In this document: positions 1 to 19,644 of the stretch, in pieces
How the letters are laid out: each line of letters starts with the position of its first letter
How positions within the stretch are numbered: the first letter of the stretch is position 1
Origin: a virus
Taxonomy: Duplodnaviria; Heunggongvirae; Uroviricota; Caudoviricetes
Strand: one strand, 5' to 3'
DNA length: 19,644 bases
Virus record (IMG/VR): IMGVR_UViG_2648501186_000019
Location: 1-19,644 of that record
Translations under genes and position numbers: made by a program
The notes under the pieces: model-generated
Databases searched by the model: none
Told to the model about the DNA's origin: nothing
Seen by the model: only the letters and a program-made list of their open reading frames with translations

Positions 1-273
1 ATGAACATCGGTAAAGCAATCATCAACTACGCAGCACGTCGCAACATGGACATTACCTTGATTGACGATGAGACCGTGGCGTTCTGGGAAGCGGATAACG
101 ATTGTGAATGGATGTTCTCCTACATGATTGGTAATGATGGTTTCCTCCACTTTAAAGGGAATGTGTATCTGCCGCAGGAGATTAAAGAAGAATTACCAGC
201 GTGCATCGATACAGACAAGAAGCTGAAAGAAGTAATCAACTTTATCGCAAACGAGTTTATCAGCAAGAAGTAA
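1..273 (+). CDS. hypothetical protein (90 aa); ATG at window position 1, so the true start may lie upstream
   Basis: Open frame 1-273 ending in TAA at 271-273. No recognisable motifs. The antisense ORF 120-581 is judged spurious. Confidence 0.45.
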   Translation: MNIGKAIINYAARRNMDITLIDDETVAFWEADNDCEWMFSYMIGNDGFLHFKGNVYLPQEIKEELPACIDTDKKLKEVINFIANEFISKK

Positions 274-285
274 GGCAGCAAAACA

Positions 286-672
286 ATGTTCAATATCATG
301 ACTCGTAAATTTGGTGAGATGACTTTCGAGAAAGCTGGTGTTGCTCGTACCGAAGAAGAAGCAATGGCCTTAGTTCTGGTAGCACTGAGATCATCAACTG
401 AGATTATCGACGCTGAATATGTAGCCGCAGAAGGTGAGATTAACGAGATTAAAGCGGTGGCTAAGGAATTAGGTGTTAAAGGTTTCCGTAAGCTGAGACT
501 ATCCCGCGAGTCATATGTAATTGGTAAGCAAGGACAATACCTAGATGAGAATACCGTGATTATTCTACTGAATAAGATCACCCGCTATGGTTTCCAGATT
601 GAGCAATATAAAACGTGTTTCGAATTATACGAAAAAGGTTTGCTGGATACTCTGACCATCGTTCGCGCTTAA
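286..672 (+). CDS. hypothetical protein (128 aa)
   Basis: ATG at 286 follows the upstream stop by 12 nt with an AAGG Shine-Dalgarno-like sequence. Acidic, probably helical, no recognisable motifs. Confidence 0.55.
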   Translation: MFNIMTRKFGEMTFEKAGVARTEEEAMALVLVALRSSTEIIDAEYVAAEGEINEIKAVAKELGVKGFRKLRLSRESYVIGKQGQYLDENTVIILLNKITRYGFQIEQYKTCFELYEKGLLDTLTIVRA

Positions 673-686
673 TTAATTTCTAATTT

Positions 687-712
687 GGTGGGTGCAATTC
701 CCACCGCTTTTT
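687..712 (+). terminator. rho-independent terminator candidate
   Basis: Stem GGTGGG (687-692) pairs with CCCACC (700-705) around a 7-nt loop, followed by GCTTTTT (706-712), directly after the 128-aa ORF stop. Confidence 0.55.
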
Positions 713-729
713 AAACTGGAGAATCAAAC

Positions 730-810
730 ATGTTAGCTTTTATCTCATTCGTGGGAGGTAGTCTCACAACCATGATTAGTCTTTCTTATATTGTCGTTAG
801 TATGGGGTGA
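730..810 (+). CDS. speculative small hydrophobic peptide (26 aa, MLAFISFVGGSLTTMISLSYIVVSMG)
   Basis: ATG at 730 preceded by GGAG (717-720); the whole peptide is hydrophobic. Below the length cutoff of the ORF track. Confidence 0.2.
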   Translation: MLAFISFVGGSLTTMISLSYIVVSMG

Positions 811-813
811 GCA

Positions 814-939
814 ATGAAACAATTTCATGATGGCATTTCATCTAAGACATTCAAGAAAGAATATAGCGGATTGTGTATTAACTGGATTGATTTGATTGGT
901 GCGGTTGTGTTTGGTCTGGTAATTAGCATCAATTTTTAA
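814..939 (+). CDS. speculative small membrane peptide (41 aa) with a C-terminal hydrophobic helix
   Basis: ATG at 814, stop TAA at 937-939. Sequence MKQFHDGISSKTFKKEYSGLCINWIDLIGAVVFGLVISINF has a polar N-terminus and a C-terminal transmembrane-like segment. Confidence 0.25.
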   Translation: MKQFHDGISSKTFKKEYSGLCINWIDLIGAVVFGLVISINF

Positions 940-942
940 CGA

Positions 943-959
943 TATAAATATATCGTAAT
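943..959 (+). promoter_or_regulatory. TATAAATA box within the palindrome CGATATAAATATATCG; candidate phage (late-type) promoter
   Basis: TATAAATA at 943-950 lies 30 nt upstream of ATG 981, with the AAGAGGA Shine-Dalgarno sequence in between. The 15-nt string TAAATATATCGTAAT (945-959) recurs exactly on the - strand at 15881-15895. Confidence 0.35.
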
Positions 960-980
960 TCATTCAAAGAGGATTCAATT

Positions 981-1322
981 ATGAAAAAGACTATCTACGC
1001 AATTATTGTTTCTGTGTGTGTTGGTGGCATCGGTGGATTTGTTTGTGGGTATGACTATTCCGATACTCAACATCAAGAGACTATCCGGTCAAATAAGGCC
1101 GAGATTAAGGATCTGAATCAGGAGATTAGCCAGTTAGAAAATGCTCTCTCACTCAAAGACAGTGAATATAGCGAGGTTTATGCAGATAAACAAAAATATT
1201 GGAAAGAGAAAGATAATCTCGTTGTTTACGGGATGAAATTGTGTAAGAGCATGAAGGACGAGCGCAGTTGTTTAATGGAACTTGCCCTTAAAGGTAACGT
1301 GACCATCGACTTCAAAGACTAA
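981..1322 (+). CDS. membrane-anchored coiled-coil protein (113 aa); function unknown
   Basis: Strong RBS AAGAGGA. N-terminal hydrophobic helix (IYAIIVSVCVGGIGGFVCG) followed by a heptad-like charged region and two C-terminal Cys. No lipobox. Confidence 0.6.
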   Translation: MKKTIYAIIVSVCVGGIGGFVCGYDYSDTQHQETIRSNKAEIKDLNQEISQLENALSLKDSEYSEVYADKQKYWKEKDNLVVYGMKLCKSMKDERSCLMELALKGNVTIDFKD

Positions 1323-1351
1323 TTAATTCAAATAACAAAGAGGATTCTATT

Positions 1352-1597
1352 ATGAAAAAGATTATCGCTGGTGTTGTTCTTGCTCTGGGTTTGGTTGGTG
1401 CTGCTAATGCGGATCAATATGTACAGGGTGATAGTGTCAAGCGTGCTGCCGTTGCACCTTCTTTAAATCAACTGTGTACTGAATTAGCACAGGTTGCCGG
1501 AGTTGGTGACGATGACGACTTTATTACTGCGTGTGTATGGAGTCATATCGAGGATATTAATAAACGTGATGCAAAACTAACTGGAAAGAAATATTAA
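1352..1597 (+). CDS. small secreted protein with a Sec-type signal peptide (81 aa)
   Basis: RBS AAAGAGGATTC nearly identical to that of the preceding gene. N-terminus MKKIIAGVVLALGLVGAANA|DQ resembles a signal peptidase I substrate; no lipobox Cys. The mature part has two Cys and a DDDD patch. Confidence 0.6.
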   Translation: MKKIIAGVVLALGLVGAANADQYVQGDSVKRAAVAPSLNQLCTELAQVAGVGDDDDFITACVWSHIEDINKRDAKLTGKKY

Positions 1598-1613
1598 TGA
1601 CTTACTAACCAAT

Positions 1614-1650
1614 GCCCCTATCGTTATAATACACGGTAGGGGCGTTTTTG
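1614..1650 (+). terminator. rho-independent terminator candidate upstream of the recombinase gene
   Basis: Stem GCCCCTATCG pairs with CGGTAGGGGC (one G-U pair) around a 10-nt loop containing TTATAAT, followed by GTTTTTGTTT. Confidence 0.55.
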
Positions 1651-1662
1651 TTTGGAAATGGT

Positions 1663-3342
1663 ATGAAAACTAAACTGTATTCGTATATTCGCTTCTCTTC
1701 AATGAAGCAAGCGGATGGTAGTTCTTATGAACGCCAAAAGAGAACAGCCGCAGAGATAGCCGCAAAATATGACCTTGAACTGGTTACTTCCTATCAGGAT
1801 TTTGGTGTATCTGCATTCAAAGGGGCTAACAGTAGAACAGGTGCATTATCTCGTTTTCTGGATGAAATTGGTCGATCCGTTCCGGTTGGTAGCTGGCTGG
1901 TTGTGGAAAACTTAGACCGTATCTCTCGCCAATCCATCATTGAAGCACAAGAGCTATTTCTCTCGATTATCCGTAGGGGAATAACTATCGTAACTGGCAT
2001 GGATGGTAAGGTCTATAGCAAGGAATCGGTTAATGCCAATCCTATTGATTTGCTGTTGAGTGTCATGTTGTTTGCGAGAGCTAACGAGGAAAGTCAGACT
2101 AAGCGCAATCGTACTAACTCAAGCGCATTGATTAAGATTAAAGCTCATCAAGAAAATCCACAAAATCCGGCTGTTGCAATCGAGGAAATTGGAAAGAATA
2201 TGTGGTGGACTGATACCACATCTGGTTATGTGCTTCCTCATCCGGTCTTCTTCCCTATTGTTCAGGAGGTTGTGGAATTACGCAGGAATGGACGGTCAAC
2301 CGCCGAGATACTGGATCACCTTAACGCGACATACACACCACCACCAGCCGCAAGTCACAAGAGGCATTCAAACTGGTCACGGGCAATGATTGAAAGGTTG
2401 TTCCATACCCGCGCTTTGATTGGTATCAAGGAAATCTCTGTAGATGGCGTTAAGTATGAGTTAAAGGATTATTATCCTCGTGTGCTAGATGACGCTGAGT
2501 TTTATCACCTTAAGAAAAGCATTGGTGTTAGAGCATGTAACTATGGAGACAAGGAAGAAGTTAAACCTATTCCCTTGCTTAGTGGTGTTGGTCTATTGAA
2601 ATGTGAACATTGCGGTTCCGCTATGGTTAAGGTGAAAGGAACTAACAAACGTCCTAACCAATATCGTTATTCATGCGATGCAATGCGCTCTAGTCGTATT
2701 GCATGTGTGCATACAAACTGGAGTTTTCGAGGTGATCAATTAGAGAAAGCTGTATTGCAATTGCTGGCTGATAAAATCTGGATTGCTGAGGATAAGGCTA
2801 ATCCGGTTCCGGCTTTGAAAGTACAGATTGATGAAATATCACGCAAGATTGATAACCTGATTACCCTTTCTGCTATGACAGGAGCAACGAAGGAGTTAGC
2901 CGACCAGATTACTACCCTCAATAGCGAGCGTGAAACACTCTACAATCAGATTAAGATGGCAGAAGAGGAAATGTATTCTGTGGACTCTCAAGGCTGGGAG
3001 AAGCTCGCAGAATTTGATTTAGAAGATGTTTATAACGAGGATCGCATTAAGGTCCGGTTTAAGATTAAGCAAGCTCTAAAACGGATCGGGTGTAGCAGGA
3101 TTGACAAATACAAAAACTTGTTTGTACTGGAATACATTGATGGTAAGACCCAGAGAGTTGTAATAGAAAATTCAAGAGGACCGAGGAAAGGCCGGATCTT
3201 CGTTGATTTGAAGACCATCAATGATAGGCAGATTCTGGAGAGTAACGGGCTTGTTTTGCATCCATGTTTAGACATGCTGACAGATAAGAACTGGAAACCA
3301 GAAGAGGAAATACCAGGTCCATTACAGGAATTTGGAATTTAA
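1663..3342 (+). CDS. large serine recombinase (serine integrase/resolvase family), 559 aa from ATG 1663
   Basis: N-terminal catalytic motif YSYIRFSSMKQ...SYERQ (Y-x-R-x-S nucleophile region), a large central domain, a Cys-rich zinc-ribbon-like segment (CEHCGS...YSCD...IACVH) and a coiled-coil-like stretch. The track start at 1648 is TTG; ATG 1663 is preferred. Confidence 0.9.
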   Translation: MKTKLYSYIRFSSMKQADGSSYERQKRTAAEIAAKYDLELVTSYQDFGVSAFKGANSRTGALSRFLDEIGRSVPVGSWLVVENLDRISRQSIIEAQELFLSIIRRGITIVTGMDGKVYSKESVNANPIDLLLSVMLFARANEESQTKRNRTNSSALIKIKAHQENPQNPAVAIEEIGKNMWWTDTTSGYVLPHPVFFPIVQEVVELRRNGRSTAEILDHLNATYTPPPAASHKRHSNWSRAMIERLFHTRALIGIKEISVDGVKYELKDYYPRVLDDAEFYHLKKSIGVRACNYGDKEEVKPIPLLSGVGLLKCEHCGSAMVKVKGTNKRPNQYRYSCDAMRSSRIACVHTNWSFRGDQLEKAVLQLLADKIWIAEDKANPVPALKVQIDEISRKIDNLITLSAMTGATKELADQITTLNSERETLYNQIKMAEEEMYSVDSQGWEKLAEFDLEDVYNEDRIKVRFKIKQALKRIGCSRIDKYKNLFVLEYIDGKTQRVVIENSRGPRKGRIFVDLKTINDRQILESNGLVLHPCLDMLTDKNWKPEEEIPGPLQEFGI

Positions 3343-3380
3343 GCGGCCTAAATCGACGTATAACGAGCTAAAATAGTTAA

Positions 3381-3403
3381 GGGGTACAGATGTACCCCTT
3401 TTT
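3381..3403 (+). terminator. rho-independent terminator after the recombinase gene
   Basis: GGGGTAC (3381-3387), loop AGAT, GTACCCC (3392-3398), then TTTTT (3399-3403). Confidence 0.7.
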
Positions 3404-3437
3404 AATTTAATTGCGTTAGGCAGCGTAAGCAAGTTTC

Positions 3438-3474
3438 ATAGTAGTTTCCTCTAAAATAATAAGTTCACTACTAT
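3438..3474. repeat. inverted repeat ATAGTAGT / ACTACTAT with a 21-nt AT-rich spacer; CACTACT-like motif recurs at about 3492-3502 and 3559-3568
   Basis: Direct reading of the recombinase-helicase intergenic region; the two arms are exact reverse complements. Confidence 0.45.
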
Positions 3475-3618
3475 TTATCAGAGAAAATTGTCTTACTATT
3501 GCATTCTCTATCTGGATGTGGGTATAGGCGGGATTGAATACGGCAAAACTGAAACATTCCACTACTGCAATAAATCACTAAACAATATAAAGAATATTGC
3601 AAGTGTGGAGTGGAACTA

Positions 3619-5109
3619 ATGCAAGATATTAAAATTCATTTTCAAGATTACAGTTTCGTTAAGGTTGATTGCTCTCCTTCTATCGGAATGGAATTAAGAG
3701 ATTATTTCTCGTTTGAGGTTGAAGGGGCTAGGTTTAGCCCCCGTTACAAGTATTCTGGCTGGGATGGACGAATAAGACTGTTTACGCATGAAAACACCCT
3801 ACCAATTGGACTATTAAAAACGTTGGGTGTCTTCGTTAAAAATATGGGCTATTCAGTCTGGATTGACCCCAGATTGCTTGAGAAGGAAGATGTAACCAAA
3901 GACGCGATTAATGAATGGATTGATTCCTTAGAAGTGTATTCCGGTAGCAATAAAATCAATCCTTATTGGTATCAAAGGGAGGCAGTCTTTCAGGGTATCC
4001 ACAATCGCCGTAGAATGCTGGTTCTTCCTACCAGTGCCGGAAAGTCATTGATTGCTTGTATGCTGTCTCGTTGGTACTTAGAGAACTACACCGGAAAAGT
4101 GTTAATCATTGTTCCGACTACATCGCTAGTGGTTCAAATGAGGGATGATTTCATCGATTATAGGCTATTCCCTTATGAAGCAATTCATACAATGATGAGT
4201 GGTAGCGGGAAACATCCGGGAGACAGGTTAATCACGGTTAGTACATGGCAATCAGCGTGCAAGATGCCTCCTGAATGGTTCAAACAATATGGAATGTTGA
4301 TAGTTGATGAATCGCATAAGGCTAGTGCCAAAAATATTACCAATATCATTAACGGAATGAATCATTGCCAATTTAAGATCGGCATGACTGGTTCCCCTAA
4401 AGAATCAAAATGCCATCTTTTACAGTATGTCGGACTTTTCGGTGATATTTCTAAGATCGTGAGTATTGACCGCCTGATGGAAGAAGGGCAGGTGACAAAA
4501 CTGAAAATTAACTGTCTTTTCCTTCGTTATACCGATGAGGAATGTAGCGCGGTTAAGGGGCGAGAATATGCGGAAGAGATCAAGTATATTACATCTAACC
4601 CACGACGAAATAAGTTTGCTTGCAATTTGGCGCTAAAACTCGCTAAGAAGGGCGAAAACGTATTCCTGATGTTCCGCAATACTAAGCACGGAAAACTTAT
4701 GTATGATGCGTTACAGAAGGTACACGACAAGGTTTATTATATTGACGGTGGAGTTAAGACAGAAGAACGAGACGAGTTCAAAAAATTAGCGGAAGGGGAA
4801 ACAGGGATCATTTGCGTTGCATCCTATGGTGTGTTCTCTACTGGTGTTTCCATCAAGAACTTGCATCATGTTATTTTCGGTCATCCAGTGAAGGAATCAA
4901 CTATCGTTCGTCAGAGTATCGGTCGTGCATTGCGTAAACATGGTTCTAAGGATATTGCAACGGTCTGGGATCTTATAGATCATTTGTGTATATTCGGTCG
5001 TAACGGAAAAGTCAAGCATAAAAATTATGCGGTAAAACATGCACTTGAGAGAATCCGCTATTATTTGACCGACAAGTTCAGCTATGCAACTAAAACAATT
5101 GCTATATAA
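3619..5109 (+). CDS. uvsW: SF2 DNA helicase of the T4 UvsW type (497 aa from ATG 3619)
   Basis: Walker A LPTSAGKS, DExH box LIVDESHKA, motif III-like TGSP, C-terminal helicase motifs (VASYGVFSTGVSIKNLHHV, QSIGRALRKHGSK). The N-terminus MQDIKIHFQDYSFVKVDC and overall pattern track the T4 UvsW sequence as I recall it. RBS GGAG 8 nt upstream of ATG 3619; the track start at 3610 is GTG. Confidence 0.85.
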   Translation: MQDIKIHFQDYSFVKVDCSPSIGMELRDYFSFEVEGARFSPRYKYSGWDGRIRLFTHENTLPIGLLKTLGVFVKNMGYSVWIDPRLLEKEDVTKDAINEWIDSLEVYSGSNKINPYWYQREAVFQGIHNRRRMLVLPTSAGKSLIACMLSRWYLENYTGKVLIIVPTTSLVVQMRDDFIDYRLFPYEAIHTMMSGSGKHPGDRLITVSTWQSACKMPPEWFKQYGMLIVDESHKASAKNITNIINGMNHCQFKIGMTGSPKESKCHLLQYVGLFGDISKIVSIDRLMEEGQVTKLKINCLFLRYTDEECSAVKGREYAEEIKYITSNPRRNKFACNLALKLAKKGENVFLMFRNTKHGKLMYDALQKVHDKVYYIDGGVKTEERDEFKKLAEGETGIICVASYGVFSTGVSIKNLHHVIFGHPVKESTIVRQSIGRALRKHGSKDIATVWDLIDHLCIFGRNGKVKHKNYAVKHALERIRYYLTDKFSYATKTIAI

Positions 5110-5110
5110 C

Positions 5111-5140
5111 AAAAAAAGCGCCCACTAGAGGCGCTTTAAT
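5111..5140. terminator. bidirectional rho-independent terminator between convergent helicase and endolysin genes
   Basis: A-tract, stem AGCGCC (5117-5122), 7-nt loop, GGCGCT (5130-5135), T-rich tail; reads as hairpin plus U-tract on both strands. Confidence 0.6.
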
Positions 5141-17106: not shown

Positions 17107-19644
17107 TTATTTAGTTGCTTTCAGTTCGGCTAATTCAGCTTTAGTTTCGGCAAGTTCTTTAGCCATAGCATCAAACTTAGCGGTCATTTCCTGCATTGCT
17201 TTGATGATTAAAGCATTGACAGCAGAGTTAGAAATAGTCTTGATTGCTTCTGGATGTTCTGGATCTTCGGTGGATTGAATACCTACTGCTTCCGGCAATA
17301 CTTTTTCCAGATCCTGAGCAATAATACCTACTTCGCGTTTAATTACTGTGTCATCAGAAAGAGATTTAACTTTATCGTAGGTGTAGACTTTCAGGGAGTT
17401 TACTTTCTCTAATGCGCCGTCCTGTAATTCTTCCTTGTTAATTTTCAAACGGGAGTCGGAGCGAATGTAAACATCGTTAAAGCTACCGTTACGACCTGCG
17501 GTAAAGTCACCAGAGGCGTTAAAGTCAAAAGTTGCATCGTGTACGTGCATACGCACCATAGCATTACCGATAGTACCGCTAGGAACATGTACACCCATTG
17601 CTGCGATATGATATTTACCTTGATGGGTTGCTTTCCATACGTTATGAGCGGAATCGGTTGATTGTTGACAGTCGACCTGAATACCAGAAGCACGATCACG
17701 CCAGCTAGCCCAACTACCACCAGCAACGCTACCACGAATAAGACCATTACCGCCACCGGATACAGTGCCCGTTTCAAGGTGAATCATCTTACCGCCGAAT
17801 TTCCAGACTTCGGTTTGTTTCTCACCACGGAAGCGAATAACACCAGCGTCATCGCAATACATCAAGCCCAACTCTAAACCGTTTGGATCTCTAAACCAGA
17901 TGTGCTTATTGCCAGCGCGTTTAAACGAAATATCAGCACCAGTTGTTGTGATATTGCTAGCAACGTTTAGACTACCCGCCATAGAGAACAGAATAGGTCC
18001 AGTGCCACCCTGAGTACGTTCAGTATACCAGTGATAACTTGTAGCATCCTTACATTCAAAAACCTGTTTGCGTTGCTCGTTACCCCATGTGTGTAAGGTA
18101 AATTGAGACTGCGACCCCCGATTAGCATCAAATGCAATTTCACCAGATTCTACACGTACAAAGCCTTTAAAACGTGCAGTAATATTTCCGGTTTCATCAT
18201 TGCGTTCAGTAGAGAAATGTATACCTGTTGGGTCTTCTATTTGAAGAATGTTGTGTCGTCCACTGGCACTATCACCCAAATGGTTTATTTTCATGAAACC
18301 GCTAGCACCCTGACGCCCACTAGAAAAATGAAGAAATCCTTTTTCTACATAAACATCACCAGCAAAACGAGCAGCACGACTTGCACGTTCTAAGACTAAT
18401 GCACCTTCGTTACCATCACCACCCAAAGTAACATTACCGCTACCAAGATGGTAAATGAACGGACGATAGCCGTTCCAACTACCAAATTTATCATTTTCGG
18501 CAGTAGACAGAAGATATACGTTTTGACCATCATTACGCCAGAATGCACCATAGTTACCGTAAATCATACGGAATGCATCACTGTTAGCAGCTACATATTG
18601 ACCATTGGTGTATACAATTTTGGTAGCACCTGTGCTTAAAGATACTTGACCACTTGCTTCTAATTTAACAAAGTTTTTACCTTCGTCACTATACCATTGA
18701 AAATCGTTAGTATCTGTAGAACCAAAACCAAACCAGCCTTGACGTTTATTAGCCCCGTTTCGCTGATCCATATATTCAAAATAGTTACTACGACCAGTAG
18801 GACGCCACATACGAATCGCGTTATTGCCTTGCAGATGAAGTCTATCGACAAATAAACCATCACTACCAACAATTTTTAATACTTCTTTTTGGTCGGTGGA
18901 ACCAGTAGCCAAACGATACACATCACCTTGAACAGTTTCATGCCATATTGTTTCCGCCGCACGACTGCGGAATTTACGCATATATTTTTTATTGTTGTCT
19001 GGTACGTTATTAAGGCTCACAATATCATAGGTTGCTTGTGAGTTATTATCAAACATCAACGTTCCGGCTTTGTTTTCGGTGTTGAACATCGTAATAACAC
19101 GAGCATCGGTAACACCAACAGAAGGTTTAACGAGAGTTAATTCAGGAACATCATGTACTGTCAGAGTAACGCCATCAGTTTTACCGTATTCGACAATAAC
19201 GTTATCGGTGTAACGACCGTAGTTAACGTAGATATCGTAGTTATCACCGGAAGTATTAACCGCAAATACTTGATGAGTATTTTTAGAATTTCGACGATAC
19301 GCCGCAATACTAACGCCTTTCGGGTTATTGTTACCGGAACGGATGACAATTTCTACAAAGTCAACCTGATCATAAGAGTTAACGTTATAACCATTACCAC
19401 CGAAGATACGAAGCATTACCATTCGACCATTCTGTGGGATCGTAGCGGTTGCGATCTTGAAGTATCCACGAGTAGCATCACCAGAAGGAACGGTCATTCT
19501 AACGTTCTTGATGAACATCTTATCAACTTCGGCTTTGGTGTATGCACCAATCTCGCCAGGAGTCGGCTTATCACCTTCGTGATACATCTTATAGCTAAAG
19601 TTCTTCTGTCCTTCTCTATCAAAACCATAGGTTTCAACACGAGA
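17107..19644 (-). CDS. tail or neck fibre protein with a C-terminal intramolecular chaperone (peptidase S74-like) domain; 5'-partial, open to the window edge
   Basis: The frame stays open to 19644 (SRVETYGFDREGQKNFSYK precedes the first Met). The C-terminus (...YIRSDSRLKINKEELQDGALEKVNSLKVYTYDK...VGIIAQDLEKVLPEAV...AELKATK) matches the autoproteolytic chaperone domain of T5 pb1-type L-shaped fibres and endosialidases. The upstream body is Gly/Asn/Thr-rich, beta-type. Confidence 0.85.
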   Translation of the reverse strand, partial: SRVETYGFDREGQKNFSYKMYHEGDKPTPGEIGAYTKAEVDKMFIKNVRMTVPSGDATRGYFKIATATIPQNGRMVMLRIFGGNGYNVNSYDQVDFVEIVIRSGNNNPKGVSIAAYRRNSKNTHQVFAVNTSGDNYDIYVNYGRYTDNVIVEYGKTDGVTLTVHDVPELTLVKPSVGVTDARVITMFNTENKAGTLMFDNNSQATYDIVSLNNVPDNNKKYMRKFRSRAAETIWHETVQGDVYRLATGSTDQKEVLKIVGSDGLFVDRLHLQGNNAIRMWRPTGRSNYFEYMDQRNGANKRQGWFGFGSTDTNDFQWYSDEGKNFVKLEASGQVSLSTGATKIVYTNGQYVAANSDAFRMIYGNYGAFWRNDGQNVYLLSTAENDKFGSWNGYRPFIYHLGSGNVTLGGDGNEGALVLERASRAARFAGDVYVEKGFLHFSSGRQGASGFMKINHLGDSASGRHNILQIEDPTGIHFSTERNDETGNITARFKGFVRVESGEIAFDANRGSQSQFTLHTWGNEQRKQVFECKDATSYHWYTERTQGGTGPILFSMAGSLNVASNITTTGADISFKRAGNKHIWFRDPNGLELGLMYCDDAGVIRFRGEKQTEVWKFGGKMIHLETGTVSGGGNGLIRGSVAGGSWASWRDRASGIQVDCQQSTDSAHNVWKATHQGKYHIAAMGVHVPSGTIGNAMVRMHVHDATFDFNASGDFTAGRNGSFNDVYIRSDSRLKINKEELQDGALEKVNSLKVYTYDKVKSLSDDTVIKREVGIIAQDLEKVLPEAVGIQSTEDPEHPEAIKTISNSAVNALIIKAMQEMTAKFDAMAKELAETKAELAELKATK

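Follow-up and report, generated by a model that had tools for sequence, protein, structure and literature searches.

A large serine integrase of a siphovirus-type Escherichia coli prophage and its probable insertion site in the antitoxin gene hicB

The 19,644-nucleotide stretch of viral DNA analysed here in full (IMG/VR record IMGVR_UViG_2648501186_000019), referred to below as the window, contains an open reading frame (ORF) at 1663–3342 that very probably encodes the site-specific large serine integrase of a temperate, siphovirus-type phage of Escherichia coli. On this same reading, and with the same high degree of confidence, the integrase inserts a prophage of about 38 kb into the antitoxin gene hicB. 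The enzyme is an ordinary, uncharacterised member of a well-known family, and the prophage that carries it is uncultured but common. Of 5426 complete E. coli genomes, 62 (about 1%) have a chromosomal match to the window in megablast searches, at 88–95% identity; by this comparison, the window is the left 19.6 kb of the siphovirus-type prophage of about 38 kb.

In the proposed mechanism, integrase dimers would bind the attachment site of the phage (attP, about 50 bp), in which the crossover would lie about 45 bp to the left of window position 1, and a site in hicB. The two integrase–DNA complexes would then synapse, and all four strands would be cut at a central TT through Ser12, after which the integrase subunits would rotate and the ends would be rejoined, leaving hicB split by the prophage after codon 104. 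Reading of the DNA sites, and with it the choice of target, would fall to the recombinase and zinc-ribbon domains; relatives with other versions of these domains have ycdX or codB as their target. For excision, a directionality factor encoded by the phage would be required.

The preliminary description of this DNA, drawn from its letters, had proposed that the ORF encodes a large serine recombinase of 559 aa that carries a catalytic serine, a zinc ribbon, and a coiled coil, and had held that profile searches would refute this if the recombinase and zinc-ribbon domains were lacking. This proposal is borne out by Pfam domains, invariant residues, and an AlphaFold model. The Pfam listing at E ≤0.01 contains Resolvase (PF00239, aa 6–153, E 7.5e-15), Recombinase (PF07508, aa 198–286, E 1.3e-07), and Zn_ribbon_recom (PF13408, aa 310–368, E 6.8e-10), all three above the curated gathering cut-offs; DUF4368 was not found at this threshold. 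PHROGs places the protein in phrog_95 ‘integrase’ (E 2.8e-56), and in E. coli prophages related to the window, RefSeq labels the same 1680-nt coding sequence ‘recombinase family protein’. Across 25 aligned homologues with identities down to 35%, the motifs Y8-x-R10-x-S12-x3-Q16 and D85-R86-x2-R89 are invariant, as are the cysteines C314, C317, C338, and C348. The catalytic domain aligns to the structure 3guv, Ser12 falling in the region of the active-site serine of the latter.

The AlphaFold model, with a mean pLDDT of 77 over the whole protein, comprises a catalytic alpha/beta domain, a long helix (127–164), a helical recombinase domain, and a zinc ribbon, which is followed by an antiparallel helical hairpin (helices 382–406 and 410–437, pLDDT about 77–91) and, at the C-terminal end, by a further alpha/beta domain (aa 444–559). 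As modelled, the hairpin (aa 382–437) is the coiled coil inserted in the zinc-ribbon domain, which is also backed by the full-length Foldseek matches to the PhiC31 and 9dxf integrase complexes. For the conserved C-terminal domain (about 115 aa), no recognisable fold relative turned up. In the comparison of the model with the PDB by Foldseek, the top matches were full-length serine integrase–att complexes, each with a probability of 1.00: 9dxf (E 2e-14; also 9dxd) and the PhiC31 integrase–attL complex 9rah (E 3.5e-13). The LI integrase–attP half-site complex 4kis (E 2e-06) and the TG1 integrase 4bqq also matched with a probability of 1.00, and these two, the former being the C-terminal region of LI integrase on DNA, support the recombinase/zinc-ribbon region. 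Sequence identity in the structural alignments to solved integrases is 13–16%. A phmmer search of the PDB with the single protein had 3guv as its sole match, and a profile search added PhiC31 (E 8e-07) and TP901-1, weakly. As far as these searches go, the sequence link to the solved integrases is remote.

The position of the gene points to an integrase. In strain STEC1575, an element of about 37.9 kb lies between both halves of ycdX, and in RMDEC332, the element sits between both halves of hicB. The prophage genes include those for terminase, portal, capsid, tail tube, tape measure, tail tip, tail fibre, an M15 endolysin, and Rha-type regulators; no other phage recombinase, tyrosine integrase, or phage transposase is annotated across the element of about 38 kb in these two genomes. 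The integrase gene starts 0.9–1.7 kb from the left prophage end in every locus examined (1.7 kb for the window type). Since the window begins with the start codon of the first prophage gene (the trimming is alike in most IMG/VR proviruses of the family), the crossover of the left junction (attL) would lie just outside the window, at the distance given above. A nearby prophage boundary and att junctions in host genomes were among the things that the preliminary description had proposed looking for, and both were found, the junctions being in hicB and ycdX of E. coli genomes. Its option of a prophage integrase is thus upheld by the gene’s place at the prophage end, by its being the only annotated recombinase, and by the host-gene junctions.

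The host gene at the left end depends on the lineage. The integrase gene occurs in 57 complete genomes, in three bands of nucleotide identity to the window (97–99%, about 91%, and about 87%). In bands 1 and 2 (91–99%), the left-end host gene is a 3' fragment of hicB (loci L001 and L004–L007), and in band 3 (about 87%), it is a 3' fragment of ycdX (L002 and L008–L011). A lineage from E. fergusonii and E. coli, with about 77% protein identity to the window, has a truncated codB at the left end, and a Salmonella lineage (about 73% protein identity) has ycdX there. In all 8 places sampled, the exact window protein has ydcR and the hicB fragment as its neighbours. With junction-spanning queries, the right junction (attR) in hicB was found in 35 complete E. 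coli genomes and attL in ycdX in 27, two genomes having both; UTME-9 (NZ_CP157110.1) and BS74R-D (NZ_CP063332.1) each carry two prophages of the family, one in hicB and one in ycdX. Within a type, every sampled insertion (35 hicB and 27 ycdX junctions) is at the same nucleotide.

The interruption of two different genes raised the possibility of a TnpX/TndX-like serine transposase that is lax in its choice of target and would move the element to many sites. It might account for hicB, ycdX, and codB being interrupted by prophages with 77–99%-identical recombinases, and TT, the crossover core described below, is also the core of one multi-targeting enzyme (PMC10083194). However, each target is paired with a distinct version of the recombinase and zinc-ribbon domains, and a single nucleotide position is used within a type. 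Moreover, the window protein lacks DUF4368, a common and typical domain of the multi-targeting clade (PMC10083194), and the element that carries it is not a transposon but a complete tailed prophage. A multi-target transposase is therefore very unlikely and was dropped as a candidate, as the targets track the DNA-binding domains. By the criteria of Durrant et al. (PMC10083194), in which a multi-targeting enzyme is one whose 90%-identity cluster is found in more than three unrelated targets, the enzyme of the window is, to judge from its alleles, site-specific and not multi-targeting: alleles with a common DNA-binding block are always at one site.

Insertion cuts hicB in its helix-turn-helix region, and the remaining ORF consists of HicB 1–104 followed by CCKPQ. 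The truncated HicB (L012 6094–6420, RMDEC332; compare K-12 hicB, L022 4509–4925) is without the C-terminal 34 residues and most of the helix-turn-helix, and hicA is intact. YcdX is cut after residue 135. The HicB antitoxin is thereby truncated by the prophage in about 0.6% of complete E. coli genomes, which may affect the regulation of HicAB.

The junctions, written in window orientation, allow the attachment sites to be defined. For the ycdX lineage, the bacterial site (attB) in the intact K-12 ycdX is CATATTTGGGA-TT-TCCGGGATGG, attL is CATATTTGGGA-TT-CCCTAATAT, and attR is GACTTGGTTTGGG-TT-TCCGGG. Compared with the intact K-12 gene, attL agrees with attB up to GGGATT and attR from TTTCC; the attB parts in attL and attR overlap by exactly 2 bp (TT) and nothing is duplicated. 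Such an exact overlap at TT without duplication is, as read from the junctions, the signature of a serine integrase. For the hicB lineage, attB is CTCCTGTTTAGGT-TT-GCCAATTCGCC, attL is ...TTTAGGT-TT-[G/C]CCTAATATAATGCCCCCACAATAA, and attR is TTATTGGGGTTTACAACATTTAGGT-TT-GCCAATTCG; the reconstructed attP is AAAATTTTAGTTATTGGGGTTTACAACATTTAGGT-TT-GCCTAATATAATGCCCCCACAATAACACGAGGGGG, and the reconstructed attB, the complement of hicB codons ~95–115, is GCAAGTTAAATAGGCGAGTAATCTCCTGTTTAGGT-TT-GCCAATTCGCCTGGCTAACTCTTGCTGAG. In related prophages, ...TT-GCCTAATATAATGCCCCCACAATAACACGAGGGGGTACAACA-ATG is found directly 5' of the first gene. In the hicB lineage, attP and attB have 12 bp in common, TTTAGGTTTGCC, which contain the TT.

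Three observations are consistent with a crossover in the hicB lineage at the same TT as in the ycdX lineage, where it would probably lie. Firstly, the base after TT in the hicB attL is G or C and hicB itself has G, so that this polymorphic base is phage-derived and bounds the core on one side. Secondly, the TT of the hicB lineage corresponds in position to that of the ycdX lineage, directly before a conserved NCCTAAT arm. Thirdly, the attP dyad TTATTGGGG...CCCCCACAATAA is centred on TT, with 15 of 30 positions symmetric in the hicB type and 19 of 30 in the ycdX type. The inner motif of this dyad is NCCTAA and the outer motif CCCC(A)CAATAAC; TT followed by NCCTAA is seen again at the codB and Salmonella ycdX junctions. 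A search for the attP pattern in JGI metagenome contigs produced six matches, which have unrelated flanks and were rejected as chance matches.

Another alternative is that of a resolvase or invertase that resolves dimers or switches a phage segment, integration being left to a different enzyme. The serine recombinase catalytic domain would suit this role, and there is a weak second match to PHROG 125 ‘DNA invertase’ (E 2e-11). Small serine resolvases and invertases (Tn3/gamma-delta, Gin/Hin) have around 180–200 aa, a C-terminal helix-turn-helix, and sites within one replicon; the window protein, at 559 aa and with its recombinase domain, zinc ribbon, and coiled coil, does not fit this form. 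Moreover, with up to 3 mismatches allowed, the window contains no att-like site, the prophage has no second annotated integrase, and the junctions have the serine-integrase signature, which makes a resolvase or invertase extremely improbable. The resolvase, transposase, and invertase options that the preliminary description had kept beside the integrase are thus disfavoured by the single site per DNA-binding-domain type, the lack of DUF4368, and the lack of an att-like site in the window.

What then distinguishes integrases with different targets? A comparison of six hicB-targeting with five ycdX-targeting proteins, in which a position was taken as fixed when the two sets have no residue in common, yielded 26 lineage-fixed positions, all of them in aa 176–351. 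The recombinase domain holds 15 of these and the zinc ribbon 11, whereas the catalytic domain, helix E, the coiled coil, and the C-terminal domain have none. The hicB allele of the 91% band (L007) is 98% identical to the ycdX lineage and 81% identical to the window over aa 1–165, and 99% identical to the window over aa 166–375; its target is hicB. In the codB lineage (P0053), identity to the window is 95% over aa 1–165 and 62% over aa 166–375, and the target is codB. By these comparisons, the integrase gene is a mosaic. Because of the fixed residues at aa 176–351 and these mosaic alleles, target choice tracks the recombinase and zinc-ribbon domains, not the catalytic domain. The choice of target by the two DNA-binding domains matches the prediction from the structural model of serine integrases.

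These alleles may, tentatively, be viewed as a natural retargeting series, an idea to which we give somewhat less than even weight. The recombinase and zinc-ribbon block would swap as a cassette apart from the catalytic domain, and blocks that are 86% identical, with the 26 fixed substitutions at aa 176–351, would direct insertion to the unrelated sites in hicB and ycdX, which have little in common beyond the TT; in addition, lysogeny might reversibly rewire HicAB through a HicB without its DNA-binding helix. If this is true, a few identifiable residues would suffice to switch recognition of both attB and attP. Three close lineages with different targets provide a short list of candidate specificity residues; specificity is a practical problem in integrase engineering.

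The architecture is that of PhiC31, Bxb1, TP901-1, A118/LI, and SPbeta SprA, namely a catalytic domain, helix E, a recombinase domain, and a zinc ribbon into which a coiled coil is inserted. Other features in common with the large serine integrases of phages are the catalytic Ser/Arg/Asp set and the four cysteines, a gene beside attP at the prophage end, a target within a host gene, a 2-bp crossover core without duplication, and a dyad-symmetric attP of about 50 bp. The window protein differs from PhiC31-type integrases in its very low sequence similarity to them and in its extra conserved C-terminal domain of about 115 aa. Characterised large serine integrases come mostly from Gram-positive hosts; unlike most of them, that of the window has a gamma-proteobacterium as its host. 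Recombinase relatives at 32–52% identity are found at 22 loci in other gamma-proteobacteria.

The best matches among isolated phages are the serine recombinases or integrases of the Burkholderia phages Bcep176 (gp53), JC1, and Bcep22, with 28–31% identity over aa 2–475; these proteins are distant, their alignments end before the C-terminal domain of the window protein, and they belong to other hosts and phage types. The YbcK-type recombinase family proteins of lambdoid E. coli phages (4A7, Perceval, D2, and others) are also large serine recombinases, with about 30% identity over aa 4–460. They are a different lineage and have an internal position, around 39–41 kb into lambdoid records of 49 kb; lambdoid phages integrate by tyrosine integrases. 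TnpX/TndX-like transposases are in the same large serine recombinase superfamily, and a TT core is also found in some multi-targeting serine enzymes (PMC10083194). Unlike TnpX/TndX, the window type has one site per DNA-binding-domain type, no DUF4368, and a phage as its carrier.

Several points weigh against the assignment of the ORF as the hicB-specific integrase of a temperate phage. No recombination has been observed. The 12-bp identity means that the crossover position in hicB is not fixed by sequence alone, and the window ends before the att site and is without a host flank of its own. No directionality factor was identified for the prophage, and no promoter-like site was found between the upstream hairpin and the ATG of the integrase gene. 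Searches of IMG/VR with two patterns did not find the attP junction of an excised or virion form, and nothing similar to the element turned up among the isolated phages of the phage collection, which makes the inducibility of the prophage putative. Finally, the insertion sequences IS911, IS1, and IS2 are present in some prophage copies (L001 12688–13856; NZ_CM149869.1 H165; NZ_CP138416.1), one IS1 copy lying within the integrase gene; with these interrupted copies, a part of the prophage population is decaying.

One explanation based on these points is that of a once-functional integrase on a grounded, cryptic prophage that is inherited vertically and no longer acts. The attP form was not found in the assembly collections searched (IMG/VR and the JGI metagenome contigs), there is no cultured relative, and the insertion sequences, including that inside the gene, are in keeping with such a state. 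Against this, the full-length gene is kept in 54 of the 57 genomes, at identities from 87% to 99%, and the exact protein is indexed in 739 blocks of the collection. Moreover, the packaging, head, tail, and lysis modules are complete, the carriers are unrelated strains from humans, pigs, cattle, birds, and water, the two lineages are co-resident in two genomes, and the DNA-binding block has been reshuffled and retargeted, which requires active spread. A cryptic prophage is therefore unlikely, and a temperate phage with an enzyme that is probably still active today would be the better explanation.

Literature searches on the prophage or on its hicB, ycdX, and codB sites found no description of it. 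One paper on ycdX (PMC7046640) concerns a 4-bp frameshift in Salmonella, not a prophage, and neither the N-terminus of the protein nor the core sequence was found in the supplements of Durrant et al. (PMC10083194), which were possibly incomplete. As an integrase, the enzyme offers nothing new in principle. To our knowledge, few serine integrases native to E. coli have been characterised, and attP, attB, and the putative crossover are now defined for an uncharacterised one, with sites that can be tested as a tool for genome engineering. The retargeting series (hicB, ycdX, and codB), tied to a swappable DNA-binding block, is of moderate added value. The coordinates of the gene, its domains, and its neighbours are given in Table 1.

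Table 1. Features of the integrase gene and the adjacent part of the window.
Feature	Position	Strand	Basis or remarks
Large serine integrase gene	1663..3342	+	ORF/translation, 559 aa + stop; ATG 1663, stop 3340-3342
Catalytic N-terminal domain (aa 1-125) and long helix E (aa 126-165)	1663..2157	+	Invariant residues, model
Codon of the nucleophile Ser12	1696-1698	+	Invariant S12
Recombinase domain, DNA-binding module (aa 166-295)	2158..2547	+	PF07508; 15/26 lineage-fixed residues
Zinc-ribbon domain (aa 296-375)	2548..2787	+	PF13408; invariant Cys; 11/26 lineage-fixed residues
Codons of the zinc-ribbon Cys ligands	2602-2604, 2611-2613, 2674-2676, 2704-2706	+	Invariant C314, C317, C338, C348
Coiled-coil motif (aa 376-440)	2788..2982	+	Two model helices; no lineage-fixed substitutions
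Family-specific C-terminal alpha/beta domain (aa 441-559)	2983..3339	+	
Terminator-like hairpin	1611..1646	+	14-pair stem then TTTGTTT; ends 16 nt 5' of integrase ATG
Terminator-like hairpin	3379..3400	both	9-pair stem, clear T-run after + copy alone; 37 nt 3' of integrase stop
attL-proximal accessory genes (1-273, 286-672, 981-1322, 1352-1597)	1..1597	+	
Variable cargo island, here UvsW-orthologue helicase alone	3401..5137	+	Ends in hairpin 5115-5137
UvsW orthologue, full-length	3610-5109	+	Pfam UvsW_N E 2e-34; T4 UvsW 2oca E 1e-183, residues 6-497

The two hairpins that bracket the gene had led the preliminary description to view it as an insulated module. Both hairpins are real, at positions that differ by 2–4 nt from those first given, but the module itself is a descriptive notion. 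The downstream hairpin lies within an extended inverted repeat (3361–3418), and a 5.6-kb region has 9 terminator-like sites compared with 3.5 ± 1.7 in shuffles. The phage replication arm that had been proposed as the context is not supported; the gene sits in an accessory arm next to attL. From the left end, attL is followed by small accessory genes, the integrase gene, and a variable island, after which come the lysis and tail genes, convergent with these and thus on the other strand. Related prophages differ in what this arm contains and have two to four small accessory genes.

Two adjacent small genes of this arm carry a direct repeat of 63 nt (965–1027 and 1336–1398, 75% identity) that covers the ribosome-binding site and the first codons (ATGAAAAAG...). 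Of the two products, one is a 113-aa protein that has a coiled coil and a hydrophobic segment at its N-terminus, and the other an 81-aa protein with a signal-peptide-like start; the repeats resemble paralogous leaders for accessory proteins that are secreted or in the membrane.

The neighbouring gene was taken to encode a UvsW-type helicase, and it is indeed a full-length orthologue by both Pfam and the match to 2oca. The nucleotide identity to the uvsW of Krischvirus, about 84%, is limited to 3619–4992, inside the ORF. The hairpin that closes the island is reported on both strands and is common to the island and the convergent lysis genes. Only some related prophages have the uvsW gene; elsewhere, the island contains UvsW accompanied by a GIY-YIG nuclease and a 185-aa protein, or a 332-aa protein and its small partners, or a Phage_Inh_N protein, or a DUF723 protein (at the same position in L004–L011 and L013–L020), and in the Salmonella relative L078, it has UvsW together with UvsY. 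The stretch between the integrase gene and that of the M15 endolysin (window 3343–5137) is a hotspot of variable content, which includes proteins with faint CapR matches. A PADLOC scan of the helicase and the small accessory proteins of the window found no specific defence system, just a generic SF2-helicase similarity. As an idea only, UvsW expressed in a lysogen could interfere with the replication of T4-like phages.

Among isolated phages, the tape measure and tail-tip proteins are closest to those of phage DCP80 (36–39% identity), and nucleotide matches are limited to the uvsW and tail-fibre genes (80–86% identity), in both cases to virulent, RB49-like Krischvirus phages. The tail-fibre gene (window 17107–19587, - strand, 826 aa) has about 77–84% nucleotide identity to the distal long-tail-fibre gene (gp37 type) of Krischvirus, a likeness that points to a recent exchange between temperate siphoviruses and virulent T4-like myoviruses. 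A Gp38-type receptor-recognising protein is annotated in some related prophages.

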